Shown in pieces: positions 9,953 through 50,263 of a stretch of 64,000 nucleotides of DNA. How positions within the stretch are numbered: position 1 is the stretch's first letter; the number at the start of each line of letters is the position of its first letter. The DNA is from an uncultured Candidatus Saccharibacteria bacterium. GTDB lineage: Bacteria; Patescibacteriota; Minisyncoccia; Minisyncoccales; Staskawiczbacteraceae. The position numbers and the translations under genes were made by a program. The notes under the pieces were generated by a model. The model searched no databases. It was not told the DNA's origin and saw only the letters and a program-made list of their open reading frames with translations. Where the stretch lies: NCBI GenBank assembly GCA_964397155.1, contig CAYNHB010000001.1:2093-66092 (forward strand). The letters are read 5' to 3'.

Positions 9953-9953
9953 C

Positions 9954-14886: not shown

Positions 14887-14910
14887 TATTAAATAATAAA
14901 AAATAAATTT

Positions 14911-15504: not shown

Positions 15505-15536
15505 AAACCGCTCACACGCCCGTGTGAGCGGTTTGG
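15505..15536 (+). terminator. Rho-independent terminator of the B12-capture operon
   Basis: ccgctcacac-gcccg-tgtgagcgg followed by tttgg, 30 nt after the stop of 14911..15474. A second small hairpin, cccctt-cttga-ggggtt, lies at 15585-15602. Confidence 0.75.
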
Positions 15537-17732: not shown

Positions 17733-17775
17733 AGTAAGTTGCTTTTTAAAAAGAGAATGCCGTTAAATTAATAGG

Positions 17776-19574: not shown

Positions 19575-20573
19575 ATGATTTTTGATAACAAAAAAATATT
19601 AATAACCGGCGGGGCTGGATCAGTGGGTCAGGCCCTAATAAAAGAGATATTAAAATACAGCGGAAATACCATCCGTGTTTTTGACATATCTGAAAATGAG
19701 ATATCCAAATTAAGGCATAATTTTATGGGAGAAAAAAGACTGCGTTATTTGATTGGCGATGTAAGGGACTTAAAGAGATTAGAATTAGCGATGGAAGGGA
19801 TTGATATTGTTATCCATTTAGCGGCGATGAAGCACGTATATACCTGCGAGTATAATCCTTTTGAAGCAATTAAAACAAATATAGACGGCCTGCAAAATGT
19901 TATAGATTGCGCCAGAAATGAGAATGTTGAGAAGGTGATTTTTACCAGCACTGATAAAGCAGCGCGCCCCTTAAGTGTGATGGGCATGACTAAGCTTATA
20001 GGCGAAAAACTTATTTCTTCTGCAAACTATTATAAGGGAAGTAGTACGACATCATTTGCTTCAGTGCGTTTTGGAAATGTGGCGGGGTCAAACGGATCTG
20101 TTGTGCCGATTTTTAAAAAACAAATTCTCAATAGCGAACCCTTGAGGATTACCGATATGAAAATGACCCGTTTTGTTATTACTATGCAAGAAGCGGTAAG
20201 TTTAATTTGCCAAGCCGTTCAGCTTATGCAGGGAGGAGAGGTATTTGTGTGGAAAATGAGAACATTAAAAATAACTGATTTGGCAGATTCAATGATAGGC
20301 AGATACGCAGGGGGCAGGCAGGTAGAAGTGGTTATCACCGGAAAAGTAGAGGGCGAAAAAATACATGAAGACATAATGTCATCAGAAGAGCTTTCCCGAT
20401 CGGTAGAGTTGGATAATCTTTATATTATTTTTCCAATGATTGATTACTCAAATATTAAAAGCAGATACCAGAACGCAAAGCCGGTTGAAAATCCGATTAT
20501 CGCTTCAAATATGGGGACTCACATGTCTTCAGACGAGATAAATAAATTATTAGGAGAAGAAAAAGATTTATGA
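19575..20573 (+). CDS. pseB: UDP-N-acetylglucosamine 4,6-dehydratase (inverting), PseB/FlaA1/CapD-type
   Basis: ILITGGAGSVG, YLIGDVRD, HLAAMKHV, STDKAARPLSVMGMTKLIGEKL and GNVAGSNGSVVPIFKKQI closely follow PseB throughout its length. Confidence 0.85.
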   Translation: MIFDNKKILITGGAGSVGQALIKEILKYSGNTIRVFDISENEISKLRHNFMGEKRLRYLIGDVRDLKRLELAMEGIDIVIHLAAMKHVYTCEYNPFEAIKTNIDGLQNVIDCARNENVEKVIFTSTDKAARPLSVMGMTKLIGEKLISSANYYKGSSTTSFASVRFGNVAGSNGSVVPIFKKQILNSEPLRITDMKMTRFVITMQEAVSLICQAVQLMQGGEVFVWKMRTLKITDLADSMIGRYAGGRQVEVVITGKVEGEKIHEDIMSSEELSRSVELDNLYIIFPMIDYSNIKSRYQNAKPVENPIIASNMGTHMSSDEINKLLGEEKDL

Positions 20574-21991
20574 TAAAAGTTTTATTAATTGATCCGCCAT
20601 TCCCGGAAAGGCCCTGGGATATAAATTGGCTGACGCAGTTTCCGCCCAAGGGCTTGATGTACATTGCCGCCTACCTGCGCCAGGCCGGAGTTGATGTGGA
20701 TGTTTTAGATATAAAGCAACTGCAGTTTGAAAGGCCCTCGCTTCTTTCGCGTTCAATAAGCGAGATACAGCAATTTGTAAAATATTATGTAAAGGAGCAT
20801 AATCCGGAAATTATTGGAATAACATCAACAACAATATCATATATTCCGGCGACAAAAATAGCCAAAGCAGTAAAGGAAGCGGCTCCAAACGCAAAAGTAG
20901 TTATTGGGGGGGTGCACGTTACATTTACAGCTCACGAAACTTTAACGGAGTGCCCATGGATAGATGTTGTTGTAAGGGGAGAGGGAGAGCGCCCGATACT
21001 TGAACTTGCGCAAGGCAAGACGCTTGCGCAAGTTCAAGGCATTAGTTTTAGAGAAAATGGAGAGATAATCGATAACCCAATGGGCCCATTATTAAATCCT
21101 GAGGAAATTCCTGTGCCAGCATATGATATGCTTGATATGAAAAAATACGCTTATGTTGTTTTAATGTGCACTCGGGGCTGTCCTCATAATTGCACCTTTT
21201 GTGAATTGCCTCAGGTGCATGGGAAAGGGATCCGCTGCCGTTCTTCTGAGAGAGTTTCTGAAGAGTTAGAGCTTGCTCTTTCTTTAAATCCAAATCTTGA
21301 AATTAGGTATGAAGATGAATTTATGGGCTTGTTTCCAGAACGCACAAAACAGATTTTAGATTTAGTGAAGAACAAAAGAGTTGGCCAGTTCCGGGCTGCT
21401 ACCAGACCTGATGGGCTTACAGATGAAATACTCGTTAAATTAAAGGAAGCGGGTTGCACCAATCTTTACATTGGCATGGAATCGGGCTCAGATGAGGTTT
21501 TAAAATTTAATAAGCGAGCTGTTACAGTGTCAAAAATTTTAGAGATTGCTGAAATGTTTAAGAAAAACGAAATGCTTTTTCACTCCGGGTTTATTTTAGG
21601 GCTTCCGGGAGAGAATAAACAAACACTTGAACAAACATTAGATATTGCCCTAAAGTGTTGCGATGCCACATTTGAAACAGTAAAGAAAAATTTTAAAGAG
21701 TTTCTTAGAATAATGCCGTTCAAATTAATTGTGGAAAATTCAAGAGCGGAGTTTAACTTATTGGCTCCAAATCCAGGCACAGAAATATTCCAGAACCCAG
21801 GAAAATTCAGGTATAAAATATTTCATAAGAATTGGGAGCTTTATGACTGCAATACTTCGGTTGGGGAACCCTATGATGTGAGTGCTTTGGAAATTGAAGA
21901 ATTTAAGAAAAAAGCTTTTAAGGCTGTCCAAGATAAAATGAAAGCTTACGATTTGCCAGTAAATTGGTGGGATTATGGATATAAAGGATAA
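20570..21991 (+). CDS. B12-binding (class B) radical SAM enzyme
   Basis: N-terminal B12-binding-like domain followed by the Cx3Cx2C motif RGCPHNCTFC. Confidence 0.8.
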   Translation: MIKVLLIDPPFPERPWDINWLTQFPPKGLMYIAAYLRQAGVDVDVLDIKQLQFERPSLLSRSISEIQQFVKYYVKEHNPEIIGITSTTISYIPATKIAKAVKEAAPNAKVVIGGVHVTFTAHETLTECPWIDVVVRGEGERPILELAQGKTLAQVQGISFRENGEIIDNPMGPLLNPEEIPVPAYDMLDMKKYAYVVLMCTRGCPHNCTFCELPQVHGKGIRCRSSERVSEELELALSLNPNLEIRYEDEFMGLFPERTKQILDLVKNKRVGQFRAATRPDGLTDEILVKLKEAGCTNLYIGMESGSDEVLKFNKRAVTVSKILEIAEMFKKNEMLFHSGFILGLPGENKQTLEQTLDIALKCCDATFETVKKNFKEFLRIMPFKLIVENSRAEFNLLAPNPGTEIFQNPGKFRYKIFHKNWELYDCNTSVGEPYDVSALEIEEFKKKAFKAVQDKMKAYDLPVNWWDYGYKG

Positions 21992-22919
21992 AAAAATTTT
22001 AATAACCGGCGGGGCCGGGTTTATGGGTCGGTGGACTGCAAAAAATTTGGTTGAAAAAGGCCATAAAGTTTGGATTTTAGATAATCTTTCAAATGGTTTT
22101 GAAAAAAATATTGAAGAATTTAGAAGCAAACTGCAGGGCTTTGTAATAGGAGACGTAAAAGATAAGGAAGTTCTTTTAAAATTATTTGAAAATAATTTCG
22201 ATATATGTGTTCATTTTGCCGCAGCAATAGATGTGCAAGAAAGCATTGATGACCCTGAAAAAAATTTCAACGATAATTGCCTTGGCACTTTTAACATTTT
22301 AGAACAATGCAGAAAGCACAACACAAAACTAGTTTTTGCCAGCTCTGCCTTAGTTTATAAAACATCGGAGCCTGGCTGTTTGATAAAAGAGCAAGACCCT
22401 GTTTTTTCCTCTTGCCCGTATGTTGCAAACAAGCTTTACGGAGAAAATCTTGCCATAGCTTATTTAAAAACTTACAATTTGCCTGTTGTTATTTTAAGGC
22501 CTTTCAGCATTTATGGGCCTTTTCAGAGAAGCGATTCTGAAGGAGGAGTGATGAGTATATTTATTAATAAAAAGCTTAAAGGTGATCCGCTTTTGGTTTT
22601 TGGAACAGGAGAACAGGAAAGAGATTTCTTTTATATTGAAGATTGCGCTGAATTTATTGCCAGAGCTTGTTTTGAAGACAAAGCCATAGGAGAAATTTTT
22701 AACGCCGGTTATGGGAAGGGAATAAAGATAAAGGATTTAGCTAAAAAAATAGCCGGCAACGAAGCAGAAATAAAATTTATTGAGCACCACCATCCTCATG
22801 CTGAAATAATGAATATGGCAGCTGACTGGCAAAAAGCAAAAACAATTTTGAATTGGGAACCGACAATAACTTTAGAACAAGGAATAATAAAAACAACTCA
22901 ATGGCTAAAAAACCAATAA
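21975..22919 (+). CDS. NAD-dependent sugar epimerase/dehydratase (extended SDR)
   Basis: ILITGGAGFMGRW Rossmann motif and a YxxxK region (YVANKLYGE). Confidence 0.75.
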   Translation: MDIKDKKILITGGAGFMGRWTAKNLVEKGHKVWILDNLSNGFEKNIEEFRSKLQGFVIGDVKDKEVLLKLFENNFDICVHFAAAIDVQESIDDPEKNFNDNCLGTFNILEQCRKHNTKLVFASSALVYKTSEPGCLIKEQDPVFSSCPYVANKLYGENLAIAYLKTYNLPVVILRPFSIYGPFQRSDSEGGVMSIFINKKLKGDPLLVFGTGEQERDFFYIEDCAEFIARACFEDKAIGEIFNAGYGKGIKIKDLAKKIAGNEAEIKFIEHHHPHAEIMNMAADWQKAKTILNWEPTITLEQGIIKTTQWLKNQ

Positions 22920-24022
22920 TTCCATACGGGCATCAATGGATAGATGAAGCCGACGTTAAAGAAGTTGTTAAAGCTTTGAGCTCTGATTGGCTTACTCAGG
23001 GCCCGAAAGTTGAAGAATTTGAAAAAGCACTTGCAAAATATTGCGGGGCAAAGTATGCCGTGGCAGTTTCTTCGGGCACCACAGCCTTATACGCAGCTTA
23101 TAATGTAGCTGGAATAAAGCTGAGAGATGAAATAATAACAACGCCTTTGACTTTTGCAGCTACTTCTAATATGGCGGCAATCTTGGGAGCAAAGCCGGTT
23201 TTTGTTGATATTGAGAGCGAGACTTTGAATATTGACCCGGAAAAAATAGACCAGAAAATTACAAGCAAAACAAAAGCCATAGTAACAGTAGATTTTGCCG
23301 GGCATCCTGCAGATTACGATAAAATTTTAAAAGTTGCCAAAAAGCATAATTTGCTGGTTATAGAAGATGCCTGCCACGCTTTGGGAGCTGTATATAAGAA
23401 CAAAAGAGTCGGAAGCTTAACTGATATGGCGATTTTAAGTTTCCACCCTGTAAAAAATATTACTACTGGAGAAGGCGGAGCAATTTTAACCAATAATAAA
23501 AATTTTTATGAAAAGCTTAAAATTTTTAGGCATCACGGAACAGTTAAAAAATCAGAAAAAGGTAAATGGTATTATAAAATTGAAAACCCGGGCTTTAACT
23601 GCAGAATTACTGATTTTCAATGCGCTTTGGGCACGAGTCAGCTAAAAAAAATAGGTAAGTTTTTAAAAAGAAGAAAAAAAATTGTTTCAGAATATAATAA
23701 GGCATTTAAAAATATTAAAAAAATTATACTGCCTGTTGAAAAAAATTATGCGAAGTCAGCCTGGCACATATATCCTGTTCAAATAAACGGATTGAACAGA
23801 AGAAAGGTTTTTGAGACATTGCAAAAAAAAGGAATTGGCTGCCAGGTCCATTATATGCCTCTGCACTTGCATCCGTTTTACAAAAAAAAGTTTGGGTATA
23901 AAAAAGGAGATTTTCCAAGAGCTGAGAAGTATTATGAGAGAGCAATCACCTTGCCCTTATATCCTAAAATGACCAACAAAGACGTCCAATATGTAATTAA
24001 GTCAGTTAAAAAAATAATATGA
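22901..24022 (+). CDS. DegT/DnrJ/EryC1/StrS-family PLP-dependent sugar aminotransferase (PseC/ArnB-like)
   Basis: The family N-terminus (IPYGHQWIDEADVKEVVKALSSDWLTQGPKVEEFE), SSGTTAL, and the FHPVKNITTGEGG lysine motif. Start taken at MAKKPIIPYG, overlapping the upstream gene. Confidence 0.85.
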   Translation: MAKKPIIPYGHQWIDEADVKEVVKALSSDWLTQGPKVEEFEKALAKYCGAKYAVAVSSGTTALYAAYNVAGIKLRDEIITTPLTFAATSNMAAILGAKPVFVDIESETLNIDPEKIDQKITSKTKAIVTVDFAGHPADYDKILKVAKKHNLLVIEDACHALGAVYKNKRVGSLTDMAILSFHPVKNITTGEGGAILTNNKNFYEKLKIFRHHGTVKKSEKGKWYYKIENPGFNCRITDFQCALGTSQLKKIGKFLKRRKKIVSEYNKAFKNIKKIILPVEKNYAKSAWHIYPVQINGLNRRKVFETLQKKGIGCQVHYMPLHLHPFYKKKFGYKKGDFPRAEKYYERAITLPLYPKMTNKDVQYVIKSVKKII

Positions 24023-24759
24023 GAACTGAAAAAGAACAAAATCACTCTAAAGAATTAAACCAACACTTAAATAGCCTGATAGCTCAAGAGAATAAACCTG
24101 TAATAGATATTATTAATGATTTTCCCAAATATGCTTCACGACAGACCCTTTCTCGCTTTTTGGCGCAGCATGAGTTATTTAAGATGATTTTAGATGTTAA
24201 GGGCTCTATTGTGGAATGCGGGGTTTTCAGGGGGGCAGGACTAATGACTTGGGCAAAATTATCTGCAATATATGAACCAGTAAATTATCACCGTGAAATC
24301 ATTGGGTTTGATACTTTTGCTGGTTTTCCTGATGTTGATGCTAAAGATGAAGCAGAAAATAAAAATGTTGACGCAAAAAAGGGTGGTATATCTGCAGATT
24401 CATATGATGAATTAAAAAAAGCAATAGATTTGTATGATTCAAACCGGTTTCTTTCCCACATAGAGAAAGTTAAACTAATCAAGGGAGACTTTTCAAAAAC
24501 TGGTCCGGAATTTATTGAGAAAAATCAACACCTTATAATATCTTTATTGTATTTAGACTTTGATATTTATAAACCTACGAAAGAAGCTTTAAAATTATTT
24601 TTACCAAGAATGCCGCGTGGGTCGGTTTTAGTTCTTGACCAAATAAATAATCCCAGATGGCCTGGGGAAACAGCTGCTTTGCTAGAAGAATTGGATCTGA
24701 ATAAGTATGAAATTAAAAATTTTTACTATGAACCAGATATATCTTATGTTGTTATATAA
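24019..24759 (+). CDS. TylF/MycF-family (macrocin-type) sugar O-methyltransferase
   Basis: IVECGVFRGAGLMTWA and the downstream DFD/LDQ segments fit the TylF (Methyltransf_24-like) family. Confidence 0.6.
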   Translation: MRTEKEQNHSKELNQHLNSLIAQENKPVIDIINDFPKYASRQTLSRFLAQHELFKMILDVKGSIVECGVFRGAGLMTWAKLSAIYEPVNYHREIIGFDTFAGFPDVDAKDEAENKNVDAKKGGISADSYDELKKAIDLYDSNRFLSHIEKVKLIKGDFSKTGPEFIEKNQHLIISLLYLDFDIYKPTKEALKLFLPRMPRGSVLVLDQINNPRWPGETAALLEELDLNKYEIKNFYYEPDISYVVI

Positions 24760-24767
24760 AAAATTTT

Positions 24768-25136
24768 ATGTTTAAAGTAGGAATTGATTTGATAGAAGTC
24801 AAAAGGTTTAAAAACATATCCCAAAAAAAGAAATTTTTGGAAAATGTTTTTACAGAAAAAGAATTAAAGCATTGCAAAAAAAAACCGGCAGAATCTTTGG
24901 CTGGCCGGTTCGCTGCCAAAGAAGCGACAAGAAAAACAATTGAAGATAAAATTGCTTTTAATGAAATAGAAATAACAAACGATAAAAATGGCGCGCCAGA
25001 AGTTAAGTTTTTGAACAAAAGAATAGAAAAAAAATATAAATCAATAATTAGCATTTCGCACACTCGATCGATGGCCCAGGCAGTGTGCATTACTTTCAAA
25101 AATGAGCGTCAAAAAATGCATAGTATTAGACCTTGA
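24768..25136 (+). CDS. acpS: Holo-[acyl-carrier-protein] synthase (4'-phosphopantetheinyl transferase)
   Basis: GIDLIEVKRF N-terminus and LAGRFAAKEATRK, with the small AcpS size. Confidence 0.75.
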   Translation: MFKVGIDLIEVKRFKNISQKKKFLENVFTEKELKHCKKKPAESLAGRFAAKEATRKTIEDKIAFNEIEITNDKNGAPEVKFLNKRIEKKYKSIISISHTRSMAQAVCITFKNERQKMHSIRP

Positions 25137-26148
25137 TAACACCCTTTGGGGCGGTATTGTGGGAGAGGACGGCTTTGAGGGAATTGAGTTATCTCTTGAT
25201 AAAGGGGCAGGTTTTATTGCTTTTCAGCAGGCTTTGTTGGATTTATATAACAAAGGAATAATTTTAGCTATTAATAGCCGAAATAATCATGAAGATGCCA
25301 TAAAAGTTATTAAAACTCACCCAAATATGATTTTGAGAGAAAACAATTTTGCCGCTGCGAGGATTAATTGGAATGATAAGGCAGACAATTTGAAAGAATT
25401 GGCAAAAGAAATAAATATCGGGCTTGATTCAATGGTATTTTTGGATGATGACCCGACAAATAGGGCGCTGGTCAAAGCAATTTTGCCAGAGGTTGAAACT
25501 CCAGAAATGCCCTCTGATCCTTCAGATTACGTAAAGTTTTTAATTCAGCTTCCATATTTTGATTTAGCTGCTCTGACAAATGAAGACAAAATGAGGGGGA
25601 ATTTTTATGTCACCGAAAGATTGCGCCGCGAGTCTGAAAAAATTTTTAATAACAGAGAGGATTTTTTAAAAAGCTTAAAAATGGAGATGCAGATATTCGA
25701 GGATGATCCGTCTCAGCTGGCGCGCTTAGCCCAGCTTACCAACAAAACCAATCAGTTCAATTTTAACAAGCGCGAGCTGTTAGAAAAAGATATTGCAGAT
25801 TTTATAAATAGCAAAGACTATAGGGTATTTTACGGCAGGTTAATAGATTGTTTTGGGGATTACGGAATAATTGGTTTTGCTGTTGTAAAAAAGGGTGAAG
25901 AATCCTGGCAAATTGAGCAATTTTTAATGAGTTGCAGGGCTATTGGGCGGGGGGCTGAGGAGGCATTTTTAGCAGCCATAGCAAAAACCGCAAAAAGCAG
26001 CCAAGCCAAAAGCTTATCAATAACATTTGTCCAAACCCTCAAAAACGAACCGGCAAAAGATTTTTTAGAAAAATACTTTAAAGATAATCCGGTGCTAATT
26101 GATAATATTGTTAATTCGCCGTCTTGGATAAAAAATGGAAAAATTTAA
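25102..26148 (+). CDS. FkbH-like HAD-superfamily (subfamily IIIC) enzyme
   Basis: CIVLDLDNTLWGGIVGEDG HAD motif I, a second motif VFLDDDP, and a ~350-aa length matching FkbH-like domains that load a glyceryl unit onto ACP. Confidence 0.6.
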   Translation: MSVKKCIVLDLDNTLWGGIVGEDGFEGIELSLDKGAGFIAFQQALLDLYNKGIILAINSRNNHEDAIKVIKTHPNMILRENNFAAARINWNDKADNLKELAKEINIGLDSMVFLDDDPTNRALVKAILPEVETPEMPSDPSDYVKFLIQLPYFDLAALTNEDKMRGNFYVTERLRRESEKIFNNREDFLKSLKMEMQIFEDDPSQLARLAQLTNKTNQFNFNKRELLEKDIADFINSKDYRVFYGRLIDCFGDYGIIGFAVVKKGEESWQIEQFLMSCRAIGRGAEEAFLAAIAKTAKSSQAKSLSITFVQTLKNEPAKDFLEKYFKDNPVLIDNIVNSPSWIKNGKI

Positions 26149-26365
26149 TAAAATAATTTTTGATATCTTTAAATTAACGCCGGCTAAGATTAAAGATTCC
26201 CTGACGTTAGAAGAAATTCCCGATTGGGATTCTATGAATTATTTACTGCTTATTTCTGAATTAGAAAAGCAATTTAAAGTATCTTTTAACATGGACCAGG
26301 TACTAAAGGCTAAATCTTTGGGCGATGTTAAAAATATGCTTCGTTCAAAAGGCATAGAATTATGA
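26135..26365 (+). CDS. Acyl carrier protein
   Basis: 76 aa with the EIPDWDSMNYLLLISELEKQF helix II and a DS(M) phosphopantetheine-attachment serine. Confidence 0.7.
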   Translation: MEKFNKIIFDIFKLTPAKIKDSLTLEEIPDWDSMNYLLLISELEKQFKVSFNMDQVLKAKSLGDVKNMLRSKGIEL

Positions 26366-28409: not shown

Positions 28410-29469
28410 GGAATATAATTTTAAAATTGGCAACAGGGAAATAGGGCCCGGAAATCCGGTTTTTATTATTGCTGAAATGTCTGCTAATCATAGTCAGGAT
28501 TTTGAAAGAGCCAAGAAAATAATTAAAGCTGCTTGCGAATGCGGAGCAGATGCAGTTAAGTTGCAAACCTATACTCCCGATACTTTGACTATTGATTGCA
28601 AGAAAGAAAGCTTTATCGTAAAAAACTCCAACCCTGATTGGAATGGGAAAACTTTATATGAACTCTATAAAACAGCTTATATGCCCTGGGAATGGTATCC
28701 GGAGCTTAAAAAAATAGCCCAAGAATGCGGTGTTATTCTTTTTTCTACTGCTTATGACGAAACATCAGTTGATTTTTTGGAAGAAATGCAGACGCCAGCT
28801 TATAAAATTGCCTCTTTTGAAATTAATGATGTGGAACTTTTAAAAAAAGTGGCCAAAACAGGAAAGCCAATAATTTTATCAAAAGGTATGGCCAGCATAG
28901 AAGAAGTAGAATTGGCAATTTCAACTTTAAGAGAAAATGGTGCTAAAGATATTATTCTTCTTCACTGCATTAGCTCGTATCCTGCTAAATTGGAGGACAT
29001 GAACTTAGCCACTATTTTAGATATAAAAGAAAAATTTAATGCAGTGCCAGGTTTATCTGACCACAGTTTAGGAATTTCTGTGGCAATAACTTCAATAGCT
29101 TTGGGAGCTTGTGTAATTGAAAAGCATTTTACCCTAAAACGAGCTGATGGCGGGCTTGACAGCTCTTTCTCTGTTGAGCCGGACGAATTAAAACAATTAG
29201 TAAAATGTGTAAGAGAGGCAGAAAAAGCTATCGGTAAAATTCAATACGGACCGACTGAAAGCGAAAAACCGAATATTATTGGCAAAAGATCGTTATTTGT
29301 GGTTGAAAATATAAAAACAGGGGAAGTGTTTACCCACAAGAATGTGCGTTCAATTCGCCCAGGATATGGGCTTGCGCCGAAATTTTTGCCTGAAGTTTTT
29401 GGAAAAAAATCGGTAAAAGACATAGAGCGCGGCACTCCCCTTGATCAAAGTTTAATTGAAAAAAAATAA
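28402..29469 (+). CDS. Nonulosonic acid synthase (NeuB/PseI/LegI family)
   Basis: FIIAEMSANHSQDFERAKKIIKAACECGADAVKLQTY N-terminal NeuB motif and a C-terminal SAF domain. Confidence 0.85.
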   Translation: MNKEYNFKIGNREIGPGNPVFIIAEMSANHSQDFERAKKIIKAACECGADAVKLQTYTPDTLTIDCKKESFIVKNSNPDWNGKTLYELYKTAYMPWEWYPELKKIAQECGVILFSTAYDETSVDFLEEMQTPAYKIASFEINDVELLKKVAKTGKPIILSKGMASIEEVELAISTLRENGAKDIILLHCISSYPAKLEDMNLATILDIKEKFNAVPGLSDHSLGISVAITSIALGACVIEKHFTLKRADGGLDSSFSVEPDELKQLVKCVREAEKAIGKIQYGPTESEKPNIIGKRSLFVVENIKTGEVFTHKNVRSIRPGYGLAPKFLPEVFGKKSVKDIERGTPLDQSLIEKK

Positions 29470-30196
29470 TATGAAATCAGCCATTATCCAAGCAAGGATG
29501 GGCTCTGATCGTTTGCCAGGGAAAGTTTTGAAGAAAATTAACGGAAGACCAATGCTGGAATACGTAATTAATAGGGTGAAGCTCTCTAAAAATTTAGATA
29601 AAGTCATTTTGGCTATTCCCAGCGCTTCTCAAGATGATATTTTGTTTAAATTAGCCAAAAAATTAAATACGATTTGTATAAGAGGGAGCGAGAAGAATGT
29701 TTTGAGCCGCTATCTTAAGGCGGCAAAAGGGACCAATACAGATGTGATTATTAGAATTACCGCCGATGCTCCTTTAATTGATCCTAGAATAATAGATGAG
29801 ATGCTAGACAGCTTTGAAAAAGAAAAATGTGATTATCTTATTAATGATGTAAGACACAAAGGCCATCCCCGAGGATTTGATGTAGATGTATTTTTTACAA
29901 AATGTTTAGAGAAAACATCAAAGCTGGCCAATACAGATTATCACAAAGAGCATATTACAACTTTTATGTTAGATCACCCTGAAATATTTAAAGTCAGATA
30001 TTACAAGGCGCCAAAAAATCTTTGCCGGCCGAATTACCGGCTTTGTGTGGATGAAAAACTTGATCTGATTTTGATAAAAAAAATATTTAAACATTTTAGG
30101 AAAAGAGAATATTTCAGCGCCCAAGAAATAATTGAATATATTGATAAAAATCCTAAATTGGCAGATATAAACAAAAATGTTAAGCAAAAAACATAA
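29456..30196 (+). CDS. Acylneuraminate cytidylyltransferase family (CMP-nonulosonate synthetase, PseF/NeuA-like)
   Basis: AIIQARMGSDRLPGKVL N-terminal CTP_transf_3 motif. The start may be MKSAII at 29471. Confidence 0.8.
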   Translation: MKKNNMKSAIIQARMGSDRLPGKVLKKINGRPMLEYVINRVKLSKNLDKVILAIPSASQDDILFKLAKKLNTICIRGSEKNVLSRYLKAAKGTNTDVIIRITADAPLIDPRIIDEMLDSFEKEKCDYLINDVRHKGHPRGFDVDVFFTKCLEKTSKLANTDYHKEHITTFMLDHPEIFKVRYYKAPKNLCRPNYRLCVDEKLDLILIKKIFKHFRKREYFSAQEIIEYIDKNPKLADINKNVKQKT

Positions 30197-30959
30197 AATA
30201 AAATACGGCTTGAAGCTATGGTCTACTGACCGGGAATTATTTCCGGAAGCAGTTCAATCATTTAAAAAAGGAACTATTGATTTTATAGAATTATATATTG
30301 TTCCCAATTCGTTTATGCCGGGAAAACTCGATTTTTTGAACGATCTGAAGAATATTCCCACAATTATTCATGCTCCTCACACCAAACACAATTTTGATGT
30401 TTTTTCACTCAACGATTCAAAGATTAAAATTTTTAAGGAGCAAGTTGCAAAAACCGCTGATTTTTTAAATAGTAAATTCATAATTGTCCATGCTGGAATT
30501 GGGGATTCCCAAGCAATTTTTAAAGAAAATATTGAAAAAATTAAAGATAAAAGAATTTTAATTGAAAATATGACAAAAATCGGCATAAATGATCAACCTT
30601 GCTTTGGACATTCTTATGAACAGTTGAAGTTTATTAAGGAGCGTGGATTTAATTTTTGTTTGGATTTCAGCCATGCGATAAAAAGCTCTATAAGCCAGAA
30701 AATAGGTTACAAAGAATTTGTTGAAAAATTAATCATTGAATTAACCCCGAATTATTTTCATATCTGCAACGGCAGATTTAATAATGACGAAGATGAACAC
30801 ATGGATTTGTTTGACGGTGACTTTGATATTAAATGGATTAAAGAAATATTGCTTAAATTAGCTGGGAAAAAAGATGTATATTTAGTATTTGAGACGCCCA
30901 AGAGCGGGAATAGAATTTCGAATGATATTAAAAATATAAACTACTTTTTAAGCATATGA
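30177..30959 (+). CDS. Xylose-isomerase-like TIM-barrel protein (sugar-phosphate isomerase/epimerase family)
   Basis: Alternating beta/alpha pattern with His/Asp/Glu metal-ligand candidates (IIHAPH, IIVHAGIG, ENMT, DFSH) typical of the AP_endonuc_2 fold. Confidence 0.5.
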   Translation: MLSKKHKIKYGLKLWSTDRELFPEAVQSFKKGTIDFIELYIVPNSFMPGKLDFLNDLKNIPTIIHAPHTKHNFDVFSLNDSKIKIFKEQVAKTADFLNSKFIIVHAGIGDSQAIFKENIEKIKDKRILIENMTKIGINDQPCFGHSYEQLKFIKERGFNFCLDFSHAIKSSISQKIGYKEFVEKLIIELTPNYFHICNGRFNNDEDEHMDLFDGDFDIKWIKEILLKLAGKKDVYLVFETPKSGNRISNDIKNINYFLSI

Positions 30960-32305
30960 ATAACAAAATAATGTTGATAAATCCGCCGATGACTTATTTT
31001 ACATCGGTAGAACCGATAAGATTGGCCCAGCCAATGGGGCTTTGTTATATTGCCGCAGTTTTAGAAAAAGAAGGGTATGATGTCAAAATATTTGACGCTC
31101 ATGCGGAAGGATACAACAACCGTACAAAAAGAGGAGACAGAACGCAGGTTGGTTTGGATGAAAAAGAGATTGCAAAAAAGATAGCAGAACTTAAGCCCGC
31201 TATCGCGGGGGTTTCGTCAATGTTTACAGACCAATACCATAATGCCAAAATGGTTTGCAAGATTATCAAAGAAGCAAATCCTGAAATTGTAACTTGCATG
31301 GGCGGAGTGCATCCAAGTATGGTAGCGGAAGAGGTTTTGAAAGATCTAAATGTTGATTATGTTATAAGGGGCGAGGCAGAGTACAGCTTTAGGGATCTTT
31401 GTGATTTGTTGGTAAAAAAGAAAGATATTGATCCTAAAAAAATTGACGGCTTGAATTTAAACTCTAAAACGAAATGGATTGAAAATCTTGACGAATTGCC
31501 TTTTCCTGCCCGCCACCTTCTTGACCTTCAAAGATATTTTGCTGCTGGAAGAGCCTATCGAGAACCGTCAAAGCGAGAGCCCGCTTTTCCCATAATTACC
31601 TCAAGATGCTGTCCTGCTTCTTGTAGTTTTTGCGCTACTCACATAATGCAAGGCCACTACCGACAGCGTTCAGTTGAAAATGTTATAACTGAGATTGAAT
31701 ATCTTATTAAAAACCATGGCATGCAAGAAATATATTTTTTGGATGATGCTTTGGCTTTCGGCAATTTTAAGGAGATATTAAAAAAGATGATTGAAAACCA
31801 GTATGATTTAGCGTGGCACGGCGCAAATGGGGTTGCTATTTACAGCTTAAATGATGAGTTGATAGAGTTATTTGCTAAATCCGGATGCTATAAAATTATA
31901 TTATCAATAGAGTCAGGCGTTCAAAAAACATTAGAATATATGAAAAAACCGGTAATATTAAACAAGGCAAATAAAATCATTAAGAAGATAAAAGATTGCG
32001 GCATGAAGGCAGAAAGCATGTTTATGATAGGCCTTCCTTGTGAGACAAAGGAGGACATATTAAATACTGTAAAATTTGCAGAGAGCTTAGATTTAGATTA
32101 TGTTAGTTTTCCTCTTGCCACGCCCTTCAAGGGAACAGCTTTTTATAGGGATTGTGTTGAAAAAGGATGCTTGGTGAAAGATTATAAGTATGAAAATCTT
32201 AAATTTGGAATTGGAAATATTCGAACCAAAGAATGGGGGACGGAATTTGTTGAGAAAGTAAGAAGAGAAGCATGGGAAAGAATTAACAAAATTAATAAAA
32301 AATAA
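30956..32305 (+). CDS. B12-binding (class B) radical SAM enzyme
   Basis: N-terminal B12-binding domain (VKIFDAH, GGVH) followed by the Cx3Cx2C motif SRCCPASCSFC. Confidence 0.8.
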   Translation: MNNKIMLINPPMTYFTSVEPIRLAQPMGLCYIAAVLEKEGYDVKIFDAHAEGYNNRTKRGDRTQVGLDEKEIAKKIAELKPAIAGVSSMFTDQYHNAKMVCKIIKEANPEIVTCMGGVHPSMVAEEVLKDLNVDYVIRGEAEYSFRDLCDLLVKKKDIDPKKIDGLNLNSKTKWIENLDELPFPARHLLDLQRYFAAGRAYREPSKREPAFPIITSRCCPASCSFCATHIMQGHYRQRSVENVITEIEYLIKNHGMQEIYFLDDALAFGNFKEILKKMIENQYDLAWHGANGVAIYSLNDELIELFAKSGCYKIILSIESGVQKTLEYMKKPVILNKANKIIKKIKDCGMKAESMFMIGLPCETKEDILNTVKFAESLDLDYVSFPLATPFKGTAFYRDCVEKGCLVKDYKYENLKFGIGNIRTKEWGTEFVEKVRREAWERINKINKK

Positions 32306-33007
32306 ATGAAAGCAACAATATTGCAGCCAACTTATTTGCCATGGATGGGATATTTTGAAATGATCGATTCTTCTGATGCTTATGTTGTTTTTGATCACGT
32401 TCAGTTTGAAAGAAAATCATGGCAGCAAAGGAATAAGATTAAAACAGCTAATGGAGTTATTTATTTAACAGTACCAGTTGAAAAATCATCGAGAGAAACA
32501 CCTATTTCTAAAATAAGAATATCTTATAATCAAGGAAATCCTTTAAAAAATCACTGGAAAACGATAGAGCTGGCTTATAAAAGAGCGCCATACTTTGGAA
32601 AGTATAAATCTTCTTTTGAAAAGATTTATTCTCAAAAGCATGTTTTATTAAAGGATTTGAATATCAAAATAATAAAATTAGCTTGTGATATTTTAGGTAT
32701 TAAGAAAAAGATAATCTTTTCTTCAGACCTTAACTTAAAAGATAAAAACATGGAAAAAACAGAAAAAGTCATAAACTTATGCAAGAACCAAGGAATAGCC
32801 CATTTATACGACGCTGAGGGAGCAGAAAAGATTTTGGATAAATCCTTGTTTCAAAAGGAGGGCATTTCGGTTGATTTCCAAGAATTTTTGCATCCAGAAT
32901 ATCCTCAGCTTTGGGGCGAATTCGTTCCATATATTTCAATAATCGACTTAATTTTTAATCAAGGAGATAAGTCCCTTTCTATTATTAGAAGCGGGGTTAA
33001 AGAATAA
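32306..33007 (+). CDS. WbqC-family protein
   Basis: MKATILQPTYLPWMGYFEMI N-terminus and ~230-aa size match the WbqC-like family. Paralog of 62669..63385. Confidence 0.6.
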   Translation: MKATILQPTYLPWMGYFEMIDSSDAYVVFDHVQFERKSWQQRNKIKTANGVIYLTVPVEKSSRETPISKIRISYNQGNPLKNHWKTIELAYKRAPYFGKYKSSFEKIYSQKHVLLKDLNIKIIKLACDILGIKKKIIFSSDLNLKDKNMEKTEKVINLCKNQGIAHLYDAEGAEKILDKSLFQKEGISVDFQEFLHPEYPQLWGEFVPYISIIDLIFNQGDKSLSIIRSGVKE

Positions 33008-33012
33008 AAACT

Positions 33013-34314
33013 ATGAAAAAACTTGCTTTATTCGGCGGAGAGCCAATATCAAAAAAACCTTTGTTGCAATATAATTCTATCGGTAAGGAAGAAGAACGGG
33101 CTGTTTTAAAAGCAACAAAAGAAAAGAAGCTTTCTGGATTTGTGGGAAGAGCTGGCGATCGTTTTTTAGGCGGTAAATATGTAAGAGAATTAGAATCAAG
33201 GTTTTGTAAGCATTTTAAGGTAAAATATGCAGTTAGCCTAAACTCTGCTTCTACCGCCCTACAGGCAGCTGTAGGAGCCTTAGGCATTGGTCCGGGAGAT
33301 GAAGTAATTACTTCGCCTTTTACAATGTCAGCTACTGCCTCTGCTATCTTGTTTAACAACGCCTTGCCTGTTTTTGCTGACATAGAAGAGGACAGCTTTT
33401 GCCTTGATTCTAAAAGTATTGAGAAAAATATCACAAAAAGAACTAAGGCAATTTTAGTTGTTAATATACTTGGCAGTTCAGCAAACTATGACCCCATTCT
33501 TAAAATAGCCAAAAAATATAACTTAAAAGTTATTGAAGATAATGCTCAATCACCAGGAGCCACTTATAAGAGTAAATTCACAGGTACGATAGGCGATATA
33601 GGCATTTTTAGTTTTAATGTTCACAAGGTTATTCAATGTGGAGAAGGAGGAATGTTAGTTACTAATAATAAAGATTATGCTTTTAGAGCCCAGCTTATTA
33701 GAAACCATGGAGAAGCAGTAATTAATGATTTGTATAAGAGTAAAAAATATTATCAGCCGGTTTTAGGCAATAATTTTCGTTTAACTGAAATTCAGGCAGC
33801 AATTGCTATAGAACAATTTAAAAAATTAGATAAGTTTAATAAACCAAGAATAATTCTTGCTAACTATTTGACTAAACAACTTTCACAATTTAAATGGCTG
33901 GTTCCCCCCTTGGTTTTTGAAGATAGTGTTCATGTTTATCATGTTTATGGTTTTAGGTTTTTGTCACAAAAAATCGGTATCAAAAGAGCAACTTTTATGA
34001 AAGCAATGAAAGCTGAGGGGTTCCAGCTTGTTGTAGGATGTGAAGACCCAATCCATTTATTAGAAGTTTTTCAAAAACAACAAATGTATCCTAATTCTAA
34101 ATTTCCTTTTGCTTCAAAGGAATATCCTCATAATATCAGCTACAAAAAAGGGATTTGCCCTGTTGCTGAAAGAATGTCGGAGGGAGAGCTTTTAGAAGCG
34201 CTAATTTGCCAGCCCGCTTATACAAAAAACGATGTTGATTTATTTATTAGAGCTGTTAAAAAAATTGAGGAGAATATCGAAGAGTTAAAAAAATATGAAA
34301 AGAAAAAGGTATAA
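33013..34314 (+). CDS. DegT/DnrJ/EryC1/StrS-family PLP-dependent sugar aminotransferase (second copy)
   Basis: Family N-terminus and a candidate PLP-lysine region FSFNVHKVIQCGEGG. 433 aa. Confidence 0.8.
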   Translation: MKKLALFGGEPISKKPLLQYNSIGKEEERAVLKATKEKKLSGFVGRAGDRFLGGKYVRELESRFCKHFKVKYAVSLNSASTALQAAVGALGIGPGDEVITSPFTMSATASAILFNNALPVFADIEEDSFCLDSKSIEKNITKRTKAILVVNILGSSANYDPILKIAKKYNLKVIEDNAQSPGATYKSKFTGTIGDIGIFSFNVHKVIQCGEGGMLVTNNKDYAFRAQLIRNHGEAVINDLYKSKKYYQPVLGNNFRLTEIQAAIAIEQFKKLDKFNKPRIILANYLTKQLSQFKWLVPPLVFEDSVHVYHVYGFRFLSQKIGIKRATFMKAMKAEGFQLVVGCEDPIHLLEVFQKQQMYPNSKFPFASKEYPHNISYKKGICPVAERMSEGELLEALICQPAYTKNDVDLFIRAVKKIEENIEELKKYEKKKV

Positions 34315-36148
34315 AATTATTTTTACCGCTCAAGATCCAGGAGGGTTTAATGCTATTACTCCTGTTATAAAAAAACTTAGAAGAGACAAAAGATTTAATG
34401 TGTCAGTGGTTTTAGCTAAACACGCCTGCCTATTTGCCGAGAAGCAGAAAATAAGATATTTAGATGCTGATAAAACACCGTTTGATATAACCGGAGCAGA
34501 TTTAATTTTAACGGGCACCAGTTTTGGCGATTCCATAGAAAAAAGAATAATAGCTATGGCTAAAGCCAAAAACATACCTACAATCAGTATAATTGATTTT
34601 TGGACTGATTACGCCCCTTCTTTCAGCGATTCAGAAACAGGCAATTTCAAATATCTGCCGGATTATATTTTGGCTGTAGACGAAATAATGAAAAAAGAAA
34701 TGGTTTTAAACGGTTTTCCGCCTGAGAAAATTTTTATTACAGGAAATCCGTCTTTTGATTCATTTTCAAGAATAATTCAACCCAAAACGAACAAAGACCT
34801 AATTGCGTTTTTCCCCCAGCCTTTTTCTGAAATATTAAAAAATAACAGCAAAGATTATAAAGATTATATCAAGTTTGACGAAGTTCAAATTCTTGAAGAT
34901 ATTGTAAAAGTATTGGAGAAGATAGACTTAAACAAAAGAATTGTAATTAATATTCACCCGCGGGCCAAAAAACTTGATAAGTTTGATAAAGTGATCGAAA
35001 ACACAAAATTAAAAATAAAAAAAGAAAAAAAATTATATAACAAAAACTTAATTGAAAAATCAGAAATAGTTATTGGGGTCAATTCCGTAGTGCTGTTCCA
35101 AGCTGCCATGAGGGGCAAAAAAGTATTAAGCTATCAGCCGGGTATTAAAAGCTCAGACCTTTTAATCAGTAACAGATTGGGTTTGTCTGTGCCGGTTTAC
35201 AAAAAAAAGGATCTTTATCGAACATTTAAGAAAATGCTTTCTCAAAAAGTTCGAAAGAATAATTCTAAACCGGTTAAAAAGTATACAGAAAATAAATCTA
35301 CTCAAAAAGTAATAGATTTTATAATTAATACTCTTAAGAATAAGCCCAAAAGAAAATTAAAAGTTATTGCCTGCATTCAAGCAAGAATGGGTTCAAGCCG
35401 CCTTAAAGGAAAAGCATTATTAAAAGTTTCTGGTAAGAGTGTAATTGAAAATATATTTCAAAGATTAAAATCGGCCAAAGAGATCGACGGCATAGTTTTA
35501 GCAACTGCAGATAATAAAGAAAATGATGTTTTAGCAAAACATGCCGAAAGAGTCGGCCTTAAATGTTACAGGGGCTCAGAAAAAGATTTGATTTCAAGGC
35601 ATTATGAAACTGCCCAAAAATTTGGAGCAGATGCTCTGCTTTTAACTACCGGAGATGCTCCATTCACCGACCCTGAAATAGTAGACAGAATGGTAAAAAT
35701 ATATAAAAAAAACTATAAAAAATTTGATTATTTTACTAATGGTTTTCCGCCCACTTTTCCTCATGGATTGGATATAGATATTATACCCTCCTCAACTTTG
35801 AAAAAATTAGACAATGAAGTAAAAAGCCCGTTTTATCGAGAATGTTTTTACGCTTATACTATGGAGAATCCTAAAAAATTTAGAATTCATAATTTAAAAA
35901 ATCCAGTTGACCTTTCTTCAATACGTTTGACGCTTGATTATCCAGAAGATTTGATTATCACAAGAAAAATTTTTAATGCTCTAGGCAGAAGAAATAAGAT
36001 TTTTGTTATGAAAGATATTCTTAAATTTCTTAAAGAAAACCCTGAGGTTCTGGAAATTAATAAAAAAAGAATAGACATGGTTATTGTTAGGAATATTCGG
36101 AGCAAAGAGTATCATTCAACAATAAACAAAAAATATGAACAACAGTAA
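34295..36148 (+). CDS. Fusion of an N-terminal GT-B-like domain (possible PseG-type UDP-sugar hydrolase or glycosyltransferase) with a C-terminal CMP-nonulosonate / SpsF-type cytidylyltransferase
   Basis: The C-terminal ~260 aa carry IACIQARMGSSRLKGKAL, a CTP_transf_3 motif. The N-terminal ~350 aa have a Rossmann-like two-lobe pattern of unknown specificity. Confidence 0.55.
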   Translation: MKRKRYKIIFTAQDPGGFNAITPVIKKLRRDKRFNVSVVLAKHACLFAEKQKIRYLDADKTPFDITGADLILTGTSFGDSIEKRIIAMAKAKNIPTISIIDFWTDYAPSFSDSETGNFKYLPDYILAVDEIMKKEMVLNGFPPEKIFITGNPSFDSFSRIIQPKTNKDLIAFFPQPFSEILKNNSKDYKDYIKFDEVQILEDIVKVLEKIDLNKRIVINIHPRAKKLDKFDKVIENTKLKIKKEKKLYNKNLIEKSEIVIGVNSVVLFQAAMRGKKVLSYQPGIKSSDLLISNRLGLSVPVYKKKDLYRTFKKMLSQKVRKNNSKPVKKYTENKSTQKVIDFIINTLKNKPKRKLKVIACIQARMGSSRLKGKALLKVSGKSVIENIFQRLKSAKEIDGIVLATADNKENDVLAKHAERVGLKCYRGSEKDLISRHYETAQKFGADALLLTTGDAPFTDPEIVDRMVKIYKKNYKKFDYFTNGFPPTFPHGLDIDIIPSSTLKKLDNEVKSPFYRECFYAYTMENPKKFRIHNLKNPVDLSSIRLTLDYPEDLIITRKIFNALGRRNKIFVMKDILKFLKENPEVLEINKKRIDMVIVRNIRSKEYHSTINKKYEQQ

Positions 36149-42197: not shown

Positions 42198-42245
42198 ATA
42201 TTGACAAAAAACAAGTCAAAGAAATAATAACAAATAATTGTATAT

Positions 42246-49209: not shown

Positions 49210-49210
49210 A

Positions 49211-50254: not shown

Positions 50255-50263
50255 ATAAAAGAT

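Follow-up and report, generated by a model that had tools for sequence, protein, structure and literature searches.

A recurrent GT-B::cytidylyltransferase fusion in a pseudaminic acid-type gene cluster of Patescibacteria

How could a pseudaminic acid (Pse)-type pathway part its sugar from the nucleotide when no gene of the PseG family is present? This question is raised by a 64,000-nucleotide stretch of DNA (the window) from an uncultured Candidatus Saccharibacteria bacterium of the Patescibacteria, a group with very small cells (assembly GCA_964397155.1, contig CAYNHB010000001.1, positions 2,093 to 66,092). The part of the window from about 17 to 41.5 kb is the core of a surface-polysaccharide island. 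It holds genes of a Pse-type pathway and, at 34295..36148 of the window, one uninterrupted open reading frame (ORF) of 617 codons that joins a GT-B domain to a cytidylyltransferase (CT). We tentatively favour, with rather less than even confidence, the reading that this region makes a cytidine monophosphate (CMP)-activated, heavily N-acylated Pse-type nonulosonic acid, and that the GT-B half of the fusion would release the nucleotide. Nonulosonic acids shape the recognition of bacterial surfaces by hosts, phages and partner cells, and Patescibacteria live attached to other microbes, so that their surface sugars are likely to be important for this lifestyle. The genes of the pathway, the module and the tailoring set described below all lie on the + strand.

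The fused gene and its neighbours

The first 350 residues of the 617-aa protein (34295..35344) form the GT-B domain, and residues 358-617 (domain at 35345..36148) match CTP_transf_3 at 78.1 bits, against a gathering score of 22.6; we call the latter domain CT2. An identical 617-aa protein is encoded on independent contigs, and the fused architecture recurs in about 20 Patescibacteria protein clusters at 35-84% identity. An assembly or frameshift artefact as the source of the fusion was rejected, as many independent assemblies spanning that range of identity share the architecture. The GT-B half also exists as a free-standing protein of 330-360 aa, and in three related loci (L005, L006, L018) the free protein is directly followed by a free cytidylyltransferase; two neighbouring genes have thus been joined in the fusion. 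Separate genes are the commoner arrangement, only 3 of the 150 best GT-B family matches in an exhaustive profile search being fused. The 617-aa protein is thus a lineage-specific fusion of two normally adjacent genes. In a Staskawiczbacteria locus (L012, 9992-12563) the GT-B domain is instead fused to a domain like CT1, the other cytidylyltransferase of the window, and a free CT2-like gene lies directly downstream, from which it follows that the fusion arose more than once. Relatives of about 800 aa (P0003, P0007, P0008, P0009) carry the HAD domain of the next gene at their C-terminus, and a GT-B::CT2::HAD protein of about 805 aa was seen in other Patescibacteria (L008, 9995-12418).

What kind of protein is the GT-B half? 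The sequence-only reading that preceded this work had described the fusion as PseG-like in its N-terminal half; the fusion has proved real, the likeness to PseG has not. The PseG model (TIGR03590) does not match the window's domain at E<=1, although 8 of 32 relatives match it (best E 3.7e-5). Profile comparison by hhalign with the PseG domain of an Escherichia coli O136 protein gives a probability of 0.2%, and BLASTP finds no match between the two. Where E. coli PseG reads SIGSGHIIRC, residues 12-20 of the GT-B half read AQDPGGFNA, so that a DPGGFN loop stands in the place of the GxGH loop, the histidine of which is catalytic in PseG. Together, the replaced loop and the hhalign result make "PseG-like" wrong as a family label. 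The structural relatives lie elsewhere: an AlphaFold2 (AF2) model (pLDDT 90.6) shows the two Rossmann-like halves of a GT-B fold, and its top 50 Foldseek matches in PDB are all UDP-N-acetylglucosamine (UDP-GlcNAc) 2-epimerases (E 7.5e-12 to 5e-10, TM 0.6-0.7). By hhalign the GT-B profile aligns with E. coli WecB at 88% over 314 columns, and with a TagF-like protein of the window at 95% (E 2e-8) over 211 columns, in its C-terminal two thirds. Matches to KpsS (48%) and NeuS (18%) are local and confined to the surroundings of the HP motif, and no meaningful alignment was obtained with NeuE or with the hydrolysing epimerase NeuC (0.4%).

The Epimerase_2 model gives 22.6-24.7 bits on the GT-B half, under its gathering score of 30.6, and weak matches in 25 of 32 relatives, while the wecB model gives 26 bits against a cut-off of 210. 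TGN(P/T)xxD and HP(R/N) motifs are shared with WecB, the histidine and proline of the HP(R/N) motif (H221-P222 of the GT-B half) being invariant in the GT-B family; the ribose-binding QEE is replaced by FQA. In the hhalign alignment, which is modestly reliable in the N-terminal half, WecB D95 stands opposite a gap next to G74, E117 opposite A91, and H213 falls in an unaligned loop; E131 alone aligns, with D/N105. An exhaustive profile search places at least 1,479 representatives (50%-identity clusters) in the family at E<=1e-30, with members seen in Patescibacteria genomes and metagenome contigs. A word-indexed protein search returned only unnamed relatives, and the source names of distant members contradict one another. 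These sequence and fold comparisons put the GT-B half in a large family without a name that is akin to the UDP-GlcNAc 2-epimerase and TagF lineages; it is neither a PseG nor a standard epimerase.

The GT-B gene is embedded in a conserved module. A second DegT aminotransferase, DegT2 (33013..34314, 433 aa, PF01041 E 8e-89), overlaps the start of the fusion by 20 nt, and in all the related loci that we examined the gene immediately ahead of GT-B likewise encodes a 430-aa DegT aminotransferase, with an overlap of about 17-20 nt wherever gene calls exist. DegT2 stays under the cut-offs of both the PseC (223 bits) and LegC (193 bits) models. Downstream of the fusion follow a HAD_2 hydrolase (36135..36737, PF13419 E 2e-19), an ATP-grasp ligase (36734..37792, ATPgrasp_Ter E 4e-28), a class I S-adenosylmethionine (SAM) methyltransferase (37746..38741, Methyltransf_23 E 8e-17) and a GFO/IDH/MocA oxidoreductase (38743..39738, PF01408 E 2e-22). 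The HAD and ATP-grasp genes had been announced as part of a set ending at 36148; they are present, at coordinates that run past that boundary. A GFO gene lies within 1-4 kb downstream in every related locus with enough flank; the flanks of L010, L011 and L016 are too short to reach it. Between GT-B and GFO stand a cytidylyltransferase, in most loci, and an N-acylating enzyme, the slot of the latter being filled by a GNAT in L003, L005, L012 and L018, by a formyltransferase in L017, and by the HAD, ATP-grasp and methyltransferase genes in the window, L007 and L008. The order of the module is accordingly DegT2, GT-B, (CT), N-acylating enzyme, GFO oxidoreductase, and it probably adds one further oxidised, transaminated and N-acylated position to the sugar. 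A 3-amino hexose was considered as precursor and is chemically excluded on general reasoning, as the C3 hydroxyl of the hexose becomes the ring oxygen of the C9 sugar. No PseG-type or NeuC-type gene is found in the window or in L003, L005, L016, L017 and L018, the loci with Pfam gene calls, and each of these six holds exactly one unassigned GT-B gene.

The two cytidylyltransferases of the window are paralogues. CT1 (29456..30196) matches CTP_transf_3 at 113.1 bits and is 34% identical to CT2, in agreement with the expectation of two such enzymes, one of them in the C-terminal half of the fusion; the best solved relative of each is PDB 6oew, at 137 bits. Neither reaches the PseF model (TIGR03584, cut-off 205.7): CT1 scores 35.8 bits and CT2 has no listed match. 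CT1 is 25% identical to E. coli PseF, to which CT2 has no BLASTP match. Both are of the SpsF type, which is tied genetically to nonulosonic acid activation, spsF of Bacillus subtilis being required for the transfer of legionaminic acid (Leg) and not for its synthesis (PMC7439481). In another uncultured lineage (L022, 9001-13086) an SpsF-type CT is fused to NeuB, and behind it stand genes for a KdsC-like HAD phosphatase, a GFO oxidoreductase and a short-chain dehydrogenase (adh_short), a group that looks like a compact PtmF/PtmA-like nonulosonic acid set. Because of the spsF genetics and this CT::NeuB fusion, CMP-sugar synthesis is a fair assignment for the SpsF-type domains.

A Pse-type core and its acylation cassette

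The synthase and the first aminotransferase support a Pse-type pathway. The synthase (28402..29469) reaches 479.2 bits on the PseI model (TIGR03586), above the equivalog cut-off of 340.25, and 315.5 bits on the NeuB model, under the cut-off of 399.65; it is 52% identical to PseI of E. coli O136 and 37% to NeuB of E. coli K1. Among 5,426 E. coli genomes its DNA matches pseI genes only, and it was through this match that the O136 enzymes became our comparison set. The aminotransferase (22901..24022, from an ATG inside ORF 22853-24022) reaches 486.6 bits on the PseC model (TIGR03588) against an equivalog cut-off of 423.5, is 42% identical to O136 PseC and has the lysine motif SFHPVK. The presence of a Pse-type 5,7-diamino nonulosonic acid pathway, which the sequence-only reading had proposed, is well supported by these scores. 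The genes and families which that reading had listed were likewise borne out at their coordinates, with E-values far beyond chance.

The first step is less straightforward. An extended short-chain dehydrogenase/reductase (SDR) at 19575..20573 (Polysacc_synt_2 E 3.5e-94) resembles the UDP-GlcNAc dehydratases Pen and PseB. PseB is its best NCBIfam match, at 316.2 bits under an equivalog cut-off of 407.75, and its identity to O136 PseB is 39%. Among solved structures it ranks Pen (6bwc, 258 bits) above FlaA1/PseB (2gn4, 250), CapE (203) and the retaining PglF (163), so that, like the synthase, it does not fall with the families that had been named as grounds for doubting a nonulosonic acid product. 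Its catalytic triad is T126-x9-M136-x3-K140, with Met in place of Tyr, and the PseB fingerprint [ST]DK-xn-Y-x3-K is not found. A triad Met is known in the inverting CapE and also in the retaining PglF and SpsM (PMC7439481; PMC8987622), and therefore does not settle the stereochemistry of the dehydratase; for the same reason we rejected the Met as proof of a retaining enzyme, inverting CapE-type enzymes having it as well (PMC7439481). The SDR at 21975..22919 resembles Pal, matching 6bwl at 349 bits (phmmer against PDB, E 1.8e-103; next structure 138 bits). A curated cut-off does not exist for Pal, and the assignment is one of specific similarity to the characterised Bacillus thuringiensis enzyme. 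In that organism Pen and Pal jointly replace PseB, Pal being the second enzyme, and give UDP-4-keto-6-deoxy-L-AltNAc (PMC5109656; PMC8987622). At the head of a related cluster (L018, 2041-4095) we observed a 684-aa protein with tandem SDR domains (Polysacc_synt_2 and Epimerase), possibly a fusion of the Pen-Pal type.

No GNAT of the PseH type is found in the window, where a putative acylation system of another kind lies between PseC and PseI. It comprises a TylF-like O-methyltransferase (24019..24759, PF05711 51.9 bits against a gathering score of 23), a 4'-phosphopantetheinyl transferase (PPTase) of the holo-acyl carrier protein (ACP) synthase type (24768..25136, PF01648 E 6e-15; TIGR00556 75 bits against 45.35), an FkbH-type glyceryl-ACP-forming enzyme (25102..26148, TIGR01686 297.3 bits against 146.65), a 76-aa ACP-like protein, an ORF recognised by its DWDSM serine motif (26135..26365), an AAC(3)-fold N-acyltransferase (26362..27162, PF02522 Antibiotic_NAT E 4e-42) and an aminopeptidase-like polysaccharide biosynthesis protein resembling Cj1295 of Campylobacter jejuni (27159..28409, DUF4910 E 6.5e-82, DUF2172, Peptidase_M28). 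The gene at 25102 had been taken for a plain HAD phosphatase, a label its FkbH score contradicts. The Pal-like gene, the PPTase, the ACP-like gene and the genes at 26362 and 27159, as well as a WbqC gene at 32306, are additions to what had been noticed from the sequence. The ACP-like protein has no family match above threshold and no NCBIfam match, and its homologue in L003 gives a weak PP-binding match. Resistance-enzyme models searched with 26362 gave none at cut-off, and this protein is a candidate for moving an ACP-bound acyl group onto a sugar amine. FkbH enzymes put a glyceryl unit on a carrier protein, and the loading system is complete here, with FkbH above its cut-off and the ACP-like protein and PPTase adjoining. 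Cj1295 is needed in C. jejuni for Pse5(2,3-di-O-methylglyceroyl)7Ac (PMC3068675), and Tannerella forsythia bears Pse5Am7Gra (PMC5378307). By analogy with these two systems, and given the FkbH/ACP/PPTase cassette, an (O-methyl)glyceroyl N-acyl group on the sugar is a reasonable prediction.

Possible roles of the GT-B half

In the route that we favour, the Pen-like and Pal-like enzymes would turn UDP-GlcNAc into a 4-keto-6-deoxy sugar, which PseC would aminate. FkbH would charge the small ACP, primed by the adjoining PPTase, with a glyceryl unit that the TylF-like enzyme may O-methylate, and the AAC(3)-fold transferase, with the Cj1295-like protein, would put this unit on a sugar amine, as an N-acyl group other than simple acetyl. 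The nucleotide would be removed before the synthase step, PseI would condense the free hexose with phosphoenolpyruvate, and an SpsF-type cytidylyltransferase would yield the CMP-sugar. The GT-B half would be the nucleotide-releasing hydrolase, taking over the function of PseG after recruitment from the 2-epimerase/TagF branch, and the other half of the fusion the CMP-sugar synthetase; one polypeptide would then couple nucleotide release to CMP activation, as the sequence-only reading had suggested. The gene families, the fusion and its conservation, the module and the lack of a PseG-family gene are observations, whereas we infer the substrates, the order of the steps, the hydrolase role and the extra amino position.

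The case for a hydrolase is a pathway-hole argument and not one from homology: no examined locus has another candidate for nucleotide release. A candidate for the transfer of the nonulosonic acid is present separately in most loci, and this also speaks for hydrolysis by the GT-B half. In the window this candidate is a KpsS/KpsC-like GT-B protein (Capsule_synth; 45660..47087, + strand; PF05159 E 1.3e-12, and a weak match of 35.6 bits to BFO_1060_trans), and homologues of it lie near the module in L005, L008, L010, L012, L014 and L017. Across 126 diverse representatives the N-terminal half of the GT-B domain is as conserved as the C-terminal half (0.46 vs 0.43), a pattern more in keeping with a small, constant substrate than with an acceptor that varies. 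Finally, the trio of GT-B, CT and GNAT genes in L003 and L005 mirrors the neighbouring genes pseG, pseF and pseH of C. jejuni (Cj1311-1313; PMC5378307) as well as the HP0326 fusion of Helicobacter pylori.

Several findings weigh on the other side. The GT-B half has no PseG homology (0.2% by hhalign; DPGGFN for GxGH), the hydrolysing epimerase NeuC is no closer than 0.4%, and D95, E117 and H213 of WecB are not faced by an acid or a histidine in the alignment. For the C-terminal half of the domain the best profile match is the TagF-like CDP-glycerol transferase (95%), and 28 of 32 relatives weakly match the BFO_1060 model of nonulosonic acid transferases; the donors of both are cytidine-linked, as would be expected of a transferase that the fused cytidylyltransferase supplies. 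Upstream, the dehydratase is under the PseB cut-off and has Met where Tyr is expected, and Pen with Pal can feed a Leg pathway too (PMC7439481), so that the stereochemistry of the product is not settled. A hydrolase role leaves the presence of two cytidylyltransferases with one NeuB, and the invariable coupling to DegT2 and GFO, unexplained, and a hydrolase gene could lie elsewhere in the genome, outside the 64-kb window. We are doubtful of the more general proposition that the whole GT-B family is a non-orthologous replacement of PseG and LegG, an independent nucleotide-sugar hydrolase from the epimerase/TagF branch that, with DegT2, GFO and an interchangeable acylating enzyme (GNAT, formyltransferase or ATP-grasp), would yield a nonulosonic acid with a third N-acylated amino group; it may hold, and is rather unlikely to.

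The strongest alternative, itself unlikely in our judgement, takes the fusion for a synthetase joined to a transferase. The GT-B half would then be a transferase dependent on cytidine nucleotides, like TagF, BFO_1060 or the sialyltransferases, and would use the CMP-sugar or CDP-linked group that the fused CT makes, with DegT2, GFO and the acylating enzyme tailoring the activated sugar before transfer and something else releasing the nucleotide. The alignment to the TagF-like protein (95%, E 2e-8) brings GxPxxD, H-P/I-R and (N/Y)SxxxF motifs into register, the HP motif is invariant and is the site of the local KpsS and NeuS matches, one relative bears the NCBI name CDP-glycerol glycerophosphotransferase, and the GT-B domain has been fused independently to both CT paralogues. 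The BFO_1060 family is genetically shown to be necessary for Pse and Leg transfer (PMC5420450), and the best of the 28 matching relatives reaches E 5e-16 on its model; all of them, however, are far under the 200-bit cut-off, and the window's own domain has no match at E<=1. Moreover, the full-length fold matches are all epimerases, every locus would be left with no nucleotide-releasing enzyme while most already have the KpsS/C-like transferase candidate, the acceptor-side N-terminal half is unusually conserved for a glycosyltransferase, and constant translational coupling to an aminotransferase is atypical of a transferase that acts on a polymer.

Two parallel nonulosonic acid routes are a further, quite improbable, explanation. 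A Leg-type set downstream would share or borrow the synthase, with the gene at 39772 as PtmE, 40518 as LegB, DegT2 as LegC, the acylating enzyme as LegH, the GT-B half as a LegG-like hydrolysing 2-epimerase, CT2 as LegF and GFO as PtmF. All seven Leg-cluster families are present, and GFO and the NTP-transferase are adjacent like PtmF and PtmE in Plesiomonas (PMC4481668). The GT-B fold matches the Epimerase_2 family, home of LegG and NeuC; L003 has two NeuB genes, and in L022 the CT::NeuB fusion precedes GFO and adh_short genes. The window, on the other hand, has a single NeuB, of the PseI type. L005 and L017 keep DegT2, GT-B and GFO but have a single dehydratase, a single NeuB and a single CT, and no NTP-transferase/dehydratase pair. 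That pair (39772..41492, + strand) consists of a sugar-1-phosphate (cytidylyl)transferase whose highest score is with the glucose-1-phosphate cytidylyltransferase model (G1P_cyt_trans, 256.6 bits; cut-off 300.25) and an NDP-hexose 4,6-dehydratase (dTDP- and CDP-glucose 4,6-dehydratase models, about 200 bits), and it probably serves a separate 6-deoxyhexose. The LegB and LegC models are far under their cut-offs, and neither the NeuC comparison nor the unconserved epimerase catalytic residues agree with a LegG.

The same four families as GFO, DegT2, the acylating enzyme and GT-B make up the classical WbpB/E/D/I (WlbA-D) pathway. Least probable of all, and very unlikely, is that the module makes an NDP-2,3-diacylamido-2,3-dideoxy sugar in that manner, with GT-B as a non-hydrolysing 2-epimerase and the CT fusion incidental: a UDP-2,3-diacetamido-2,3-dideoxy-glucuronate 2-epimerase does rank third in the fold search, WecB aligns over 314 columns, the best named matches of GFO are the UDP-GlcNAc 3-dehydrogenase model (best NCBIfam, 96.7 bits, under a cut-off of 450) and WlbA (3q2k, 60 bits), and a UDP-sugar dehydrogenase-like gene adjoins the L018 module, but D95, E117 and H213 are unmatched, Epimerase_2 stops at 24.7 bits under 30.6, nothing in this reading accounts for cytidylyltransferases lying repeatedly beside GT-B or being fused to it on separate occasions, DegT2 resembles WbpE (138 bits) no more than it does perosamine synthase, KdnA or inosose aminotransferases (178-190 bits), and the Pse pathway would still be short of a hydrolase.

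None of these readings explains two cytidylyltransferases with a single synthase. If the GT-B half releases the nucleotide, surveys that look for PseG, LegG or NeuC would undercount Pse and Leg pathways in a large part of the bacterial tree, and a new enzyme for the chemo-enzymatic synthesis of CMP-nonulosonates would be at hand; if it is a transferase, nature would here have fused the activation of a rare sugar to its transfer. On either reading, experiments would find a compact target in the conserved module of five genes, in which the acylating enzyme is exchangeable. In other respects the cluster, elaborate as it is, can be recognised as one of a familiar class. Tailoring in Pse clusters, cytidylyltransferases of the SpsF type and fusions of Pse enzymes have all been described before. 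The large GT-B family, the fixed DegT2/GFO module, the recurrent CT fusion and the presence in Patescibacteria are not described in the searchable literature, and a search of the library for work linking Patescibacteria or the Candidate Phyla Radiation to nonulosonic or pseudaminic acids found none.

Tailoring genes, the surrounding island and known systems

Heavy tailoring of the sugar, as the sequence-only reading had it, is plausible from the gene content. Two enzymes of the core region, one between the Pen-like and Pal-like genes (20570..21991; B12-binding 84.8 bits, Radical_SAM 78.4 bits, CPHNCTFC at residue 204) and one further downstream (30956..32305; B12-binding and Radical_SAM, CPASCSFC), combine B12-binding and Radical_SAM domains with a CxxxCxxC motif and are thus class B (cobalamin) radical SAM enzymes. 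No NCBIfam model reaches its cut-off with the first, which may have a methylating role; the best for the second is the Sden_1168 P-methyltransferase family, at 245 bits under a cut-off of 575. In total the window has five class B radical SAM genes with CxxxCxxC (6357-11921, 20570-21991 and 30956-32305), two of which (8009-9952 and 9954-11921) are tandem paralogues, 71% identical. Beside the upstream ones, at 12114-15474, lie two DUF4430 proteins and a DUF6580 protein; we take DUF4430 to be a cobalamin-binding-like family. Together these genes suggest that B12 is in strong demand locally, in an organism that probably does not produce it.

Two further genes of the cluster are less easily placed. 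A xylose-isomerase-like TIM barrel (30177..30959, PF01261 AP_endonuc_2 35.3 bits against a gathering score of 31.1) is kept next to CT1 in L003 and L007, and no sequence relatives were found in PDB. A WbqC-family protein (32306..33007, PF08889 E 4e-74), modelled by AF2 with pLDDT 93.2 and pTM 0.90, has no fold match in PDB at E<=0.001 and no sequence match there. The invariant residues of this family include Q7, D30-H31, R42-N43, H83, Y91, C159, Y199, Q201, D214 and N218, and a literature search for a functional study of WbqC found none. By its conservation and location, WbqC is an enzyme-like family with no solved relative that is found in amino-sugar clusters. A second WbqC paralogue of the window, at 62669-63385, is 39% identical to the first.

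The cluster lies in a co-directional + strand block of 26 genes, from about 17.3 to 41.5 kb, in which most genes overlap a neighbour by 4-67 nt or are separated from it by less than 45 nt. A strong hairpin (15505-15534) lies about 1.7 kb upstream of the block, and a perfect 20-bp hairpin with a minus-strand T-run 3' (41498-41541), between convergent genes, marks its end. Past the minus-strand gene that follows (41583-42197), two divergent promoter-like sites at 42201-42252 each agree with 11 of 12 consensus positions. The Pse genes are immediately preceded (17265-19026) by genes for a TagD/RfaE-like nucleotidyltransferase and a TagF/TarF-like CDP-glycerol glycerophosphotransferase, the latter being the TagF-like protein to which the C-terminal half of the GT-B domain aligns at 95%. 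The remainder of the window is a surface-polysaccharide island with two Wzx-type flippases, GT2, GT4 and GT9 glycosyltransferases, an initiating sugar transferase (62021), a Wzy_C-TPR protein and an ADP-heptose set. The Wzy_C-TPR protein (2406-4949, minus strand, 847 aa) joins an O-antigen-ligase/Wzy_C domain to a C-terminal run of TPRs. The ADP-heptose set (49163-54548) comprises a GT9 heptosyltransferase-like gene, a PfkB kinase, a cytidylyl/adenylyl-transferase::HAD fusion and an ADP-glyceromanno-heptose 6-epimerase above its equivalog cut-off (310 vs 274.6 bits); to our knowledge Patescibacteria have no lipopolysaccharide outer membrane, which makes such a set noteworthy. No flagellar genes were found among the window genes. 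A flagellin glycosylation island was rejected on this ground and for the flippases, glycosyltransferases, initiating transferase and Wzy-like protein. Proteins that are identical or close in sequence occur in metagenome-assembled genomes of Patescibacteria, Parcubacteria, Staskawiczbacteria and Saccharibacteria.

How does this cluster compare with the systems that have been described? The CMP-Pse route of B. thuringiensis runs through seven enzymes, Pen, Pal, Pam, Pdi, Phy, Ppa and Pcp. With the CMP-Pse pathways of B. thuringiensis and of C. jejuni and H. pylori (PseBCHGIF) our cluster shares the Pen-Pal-like pair, PseC, PseI, a CTP_transf_3 cytidylyltransferase and tight clustering. It departs from them in that the window lacks a PseG-family hydrolase and a GNAT PseH, in its SpsF-type cytidylyltransferases, two in number, in its Thr-Met-Lys triad, and in its extra aminotransferase, oxidoreductase and acylation set. 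The acylation genes resemble those of the Cj1295 region of C. jejuni NCTC 11168, where an aminopeptidase-like protein likewise stands within a Pse locus beside an acyltransferase of the AAC(3) type, together with an ACP, an enzyme of the HAD-IIIC/FkbH type and an O-methyltransferase. That region serves flagellin glycosylation; ours lies among Wzx flippases, glycosyltransferases and an initiating transferase, in a polysaccharide island.

The fusion has precedents as well. HP0326A and HP0326B of H. pylori, which we take to be pseF and pseG, offer the same picture: within one nonulosonic acid pathway, the cytidylyltransferase and the GT-B enzyme have adjacent genes and sometimes form one polypeptide, the split form being the commoner. 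HP0326 itself joins two genes that are separate in other strains (PMC3046158). Our protein differs in its order, GT-B then CT, in a GT-B half with no detectable PseG homology, and in the SpsF type of its cytidylyltransferase. In the O-antigen cluster of E. coli 08-00022 (O136; L025, 7246-9825), an 859-aa protein named pseudaminic acid synthase in RefSeq has PseI at residues 517-859 and the PseG motif SIGSGHIIRC at its N-terminus; the cluster has no separate pseG or pseH, and the protein is most likely a natural PseG-PseH-PseI triple fusion. To regard a fusion in such a pathway as non-canonical, as had been done for the 617-aa protein, was in the light of HP0326 and the O136 protein an overstatement. 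With the UDP-GlcNAc 2-epimerases (WecB, MnaA, WbpI, NeuC, LegG) the GT-B half shares the fold and the TGN(P/T)xxD and HP(R/N) motifs, and differs from them in the catalytic residues and in FQA for QEE. As for TagB/TagF and the BFO_1060/Tanf_01245 transferases, an HP motif is present, the C-terminal, nucleotide-binding half aligns at 95%, and relatives weakly match the BFO_1060 model; yet only about two thirds of the domain aligns, the scores are far under the cut-offs, and the N-terminal half is highly conserved, which an acceptor domain is not. Both cytidylyltransferases belong to the same branch as the COG1861-type SpsF of the B. subtilis sps Leg pathway, from which the present system is set apart by having two paralogues, one of them fused to GT-B and, in relatives, to HAD as well.

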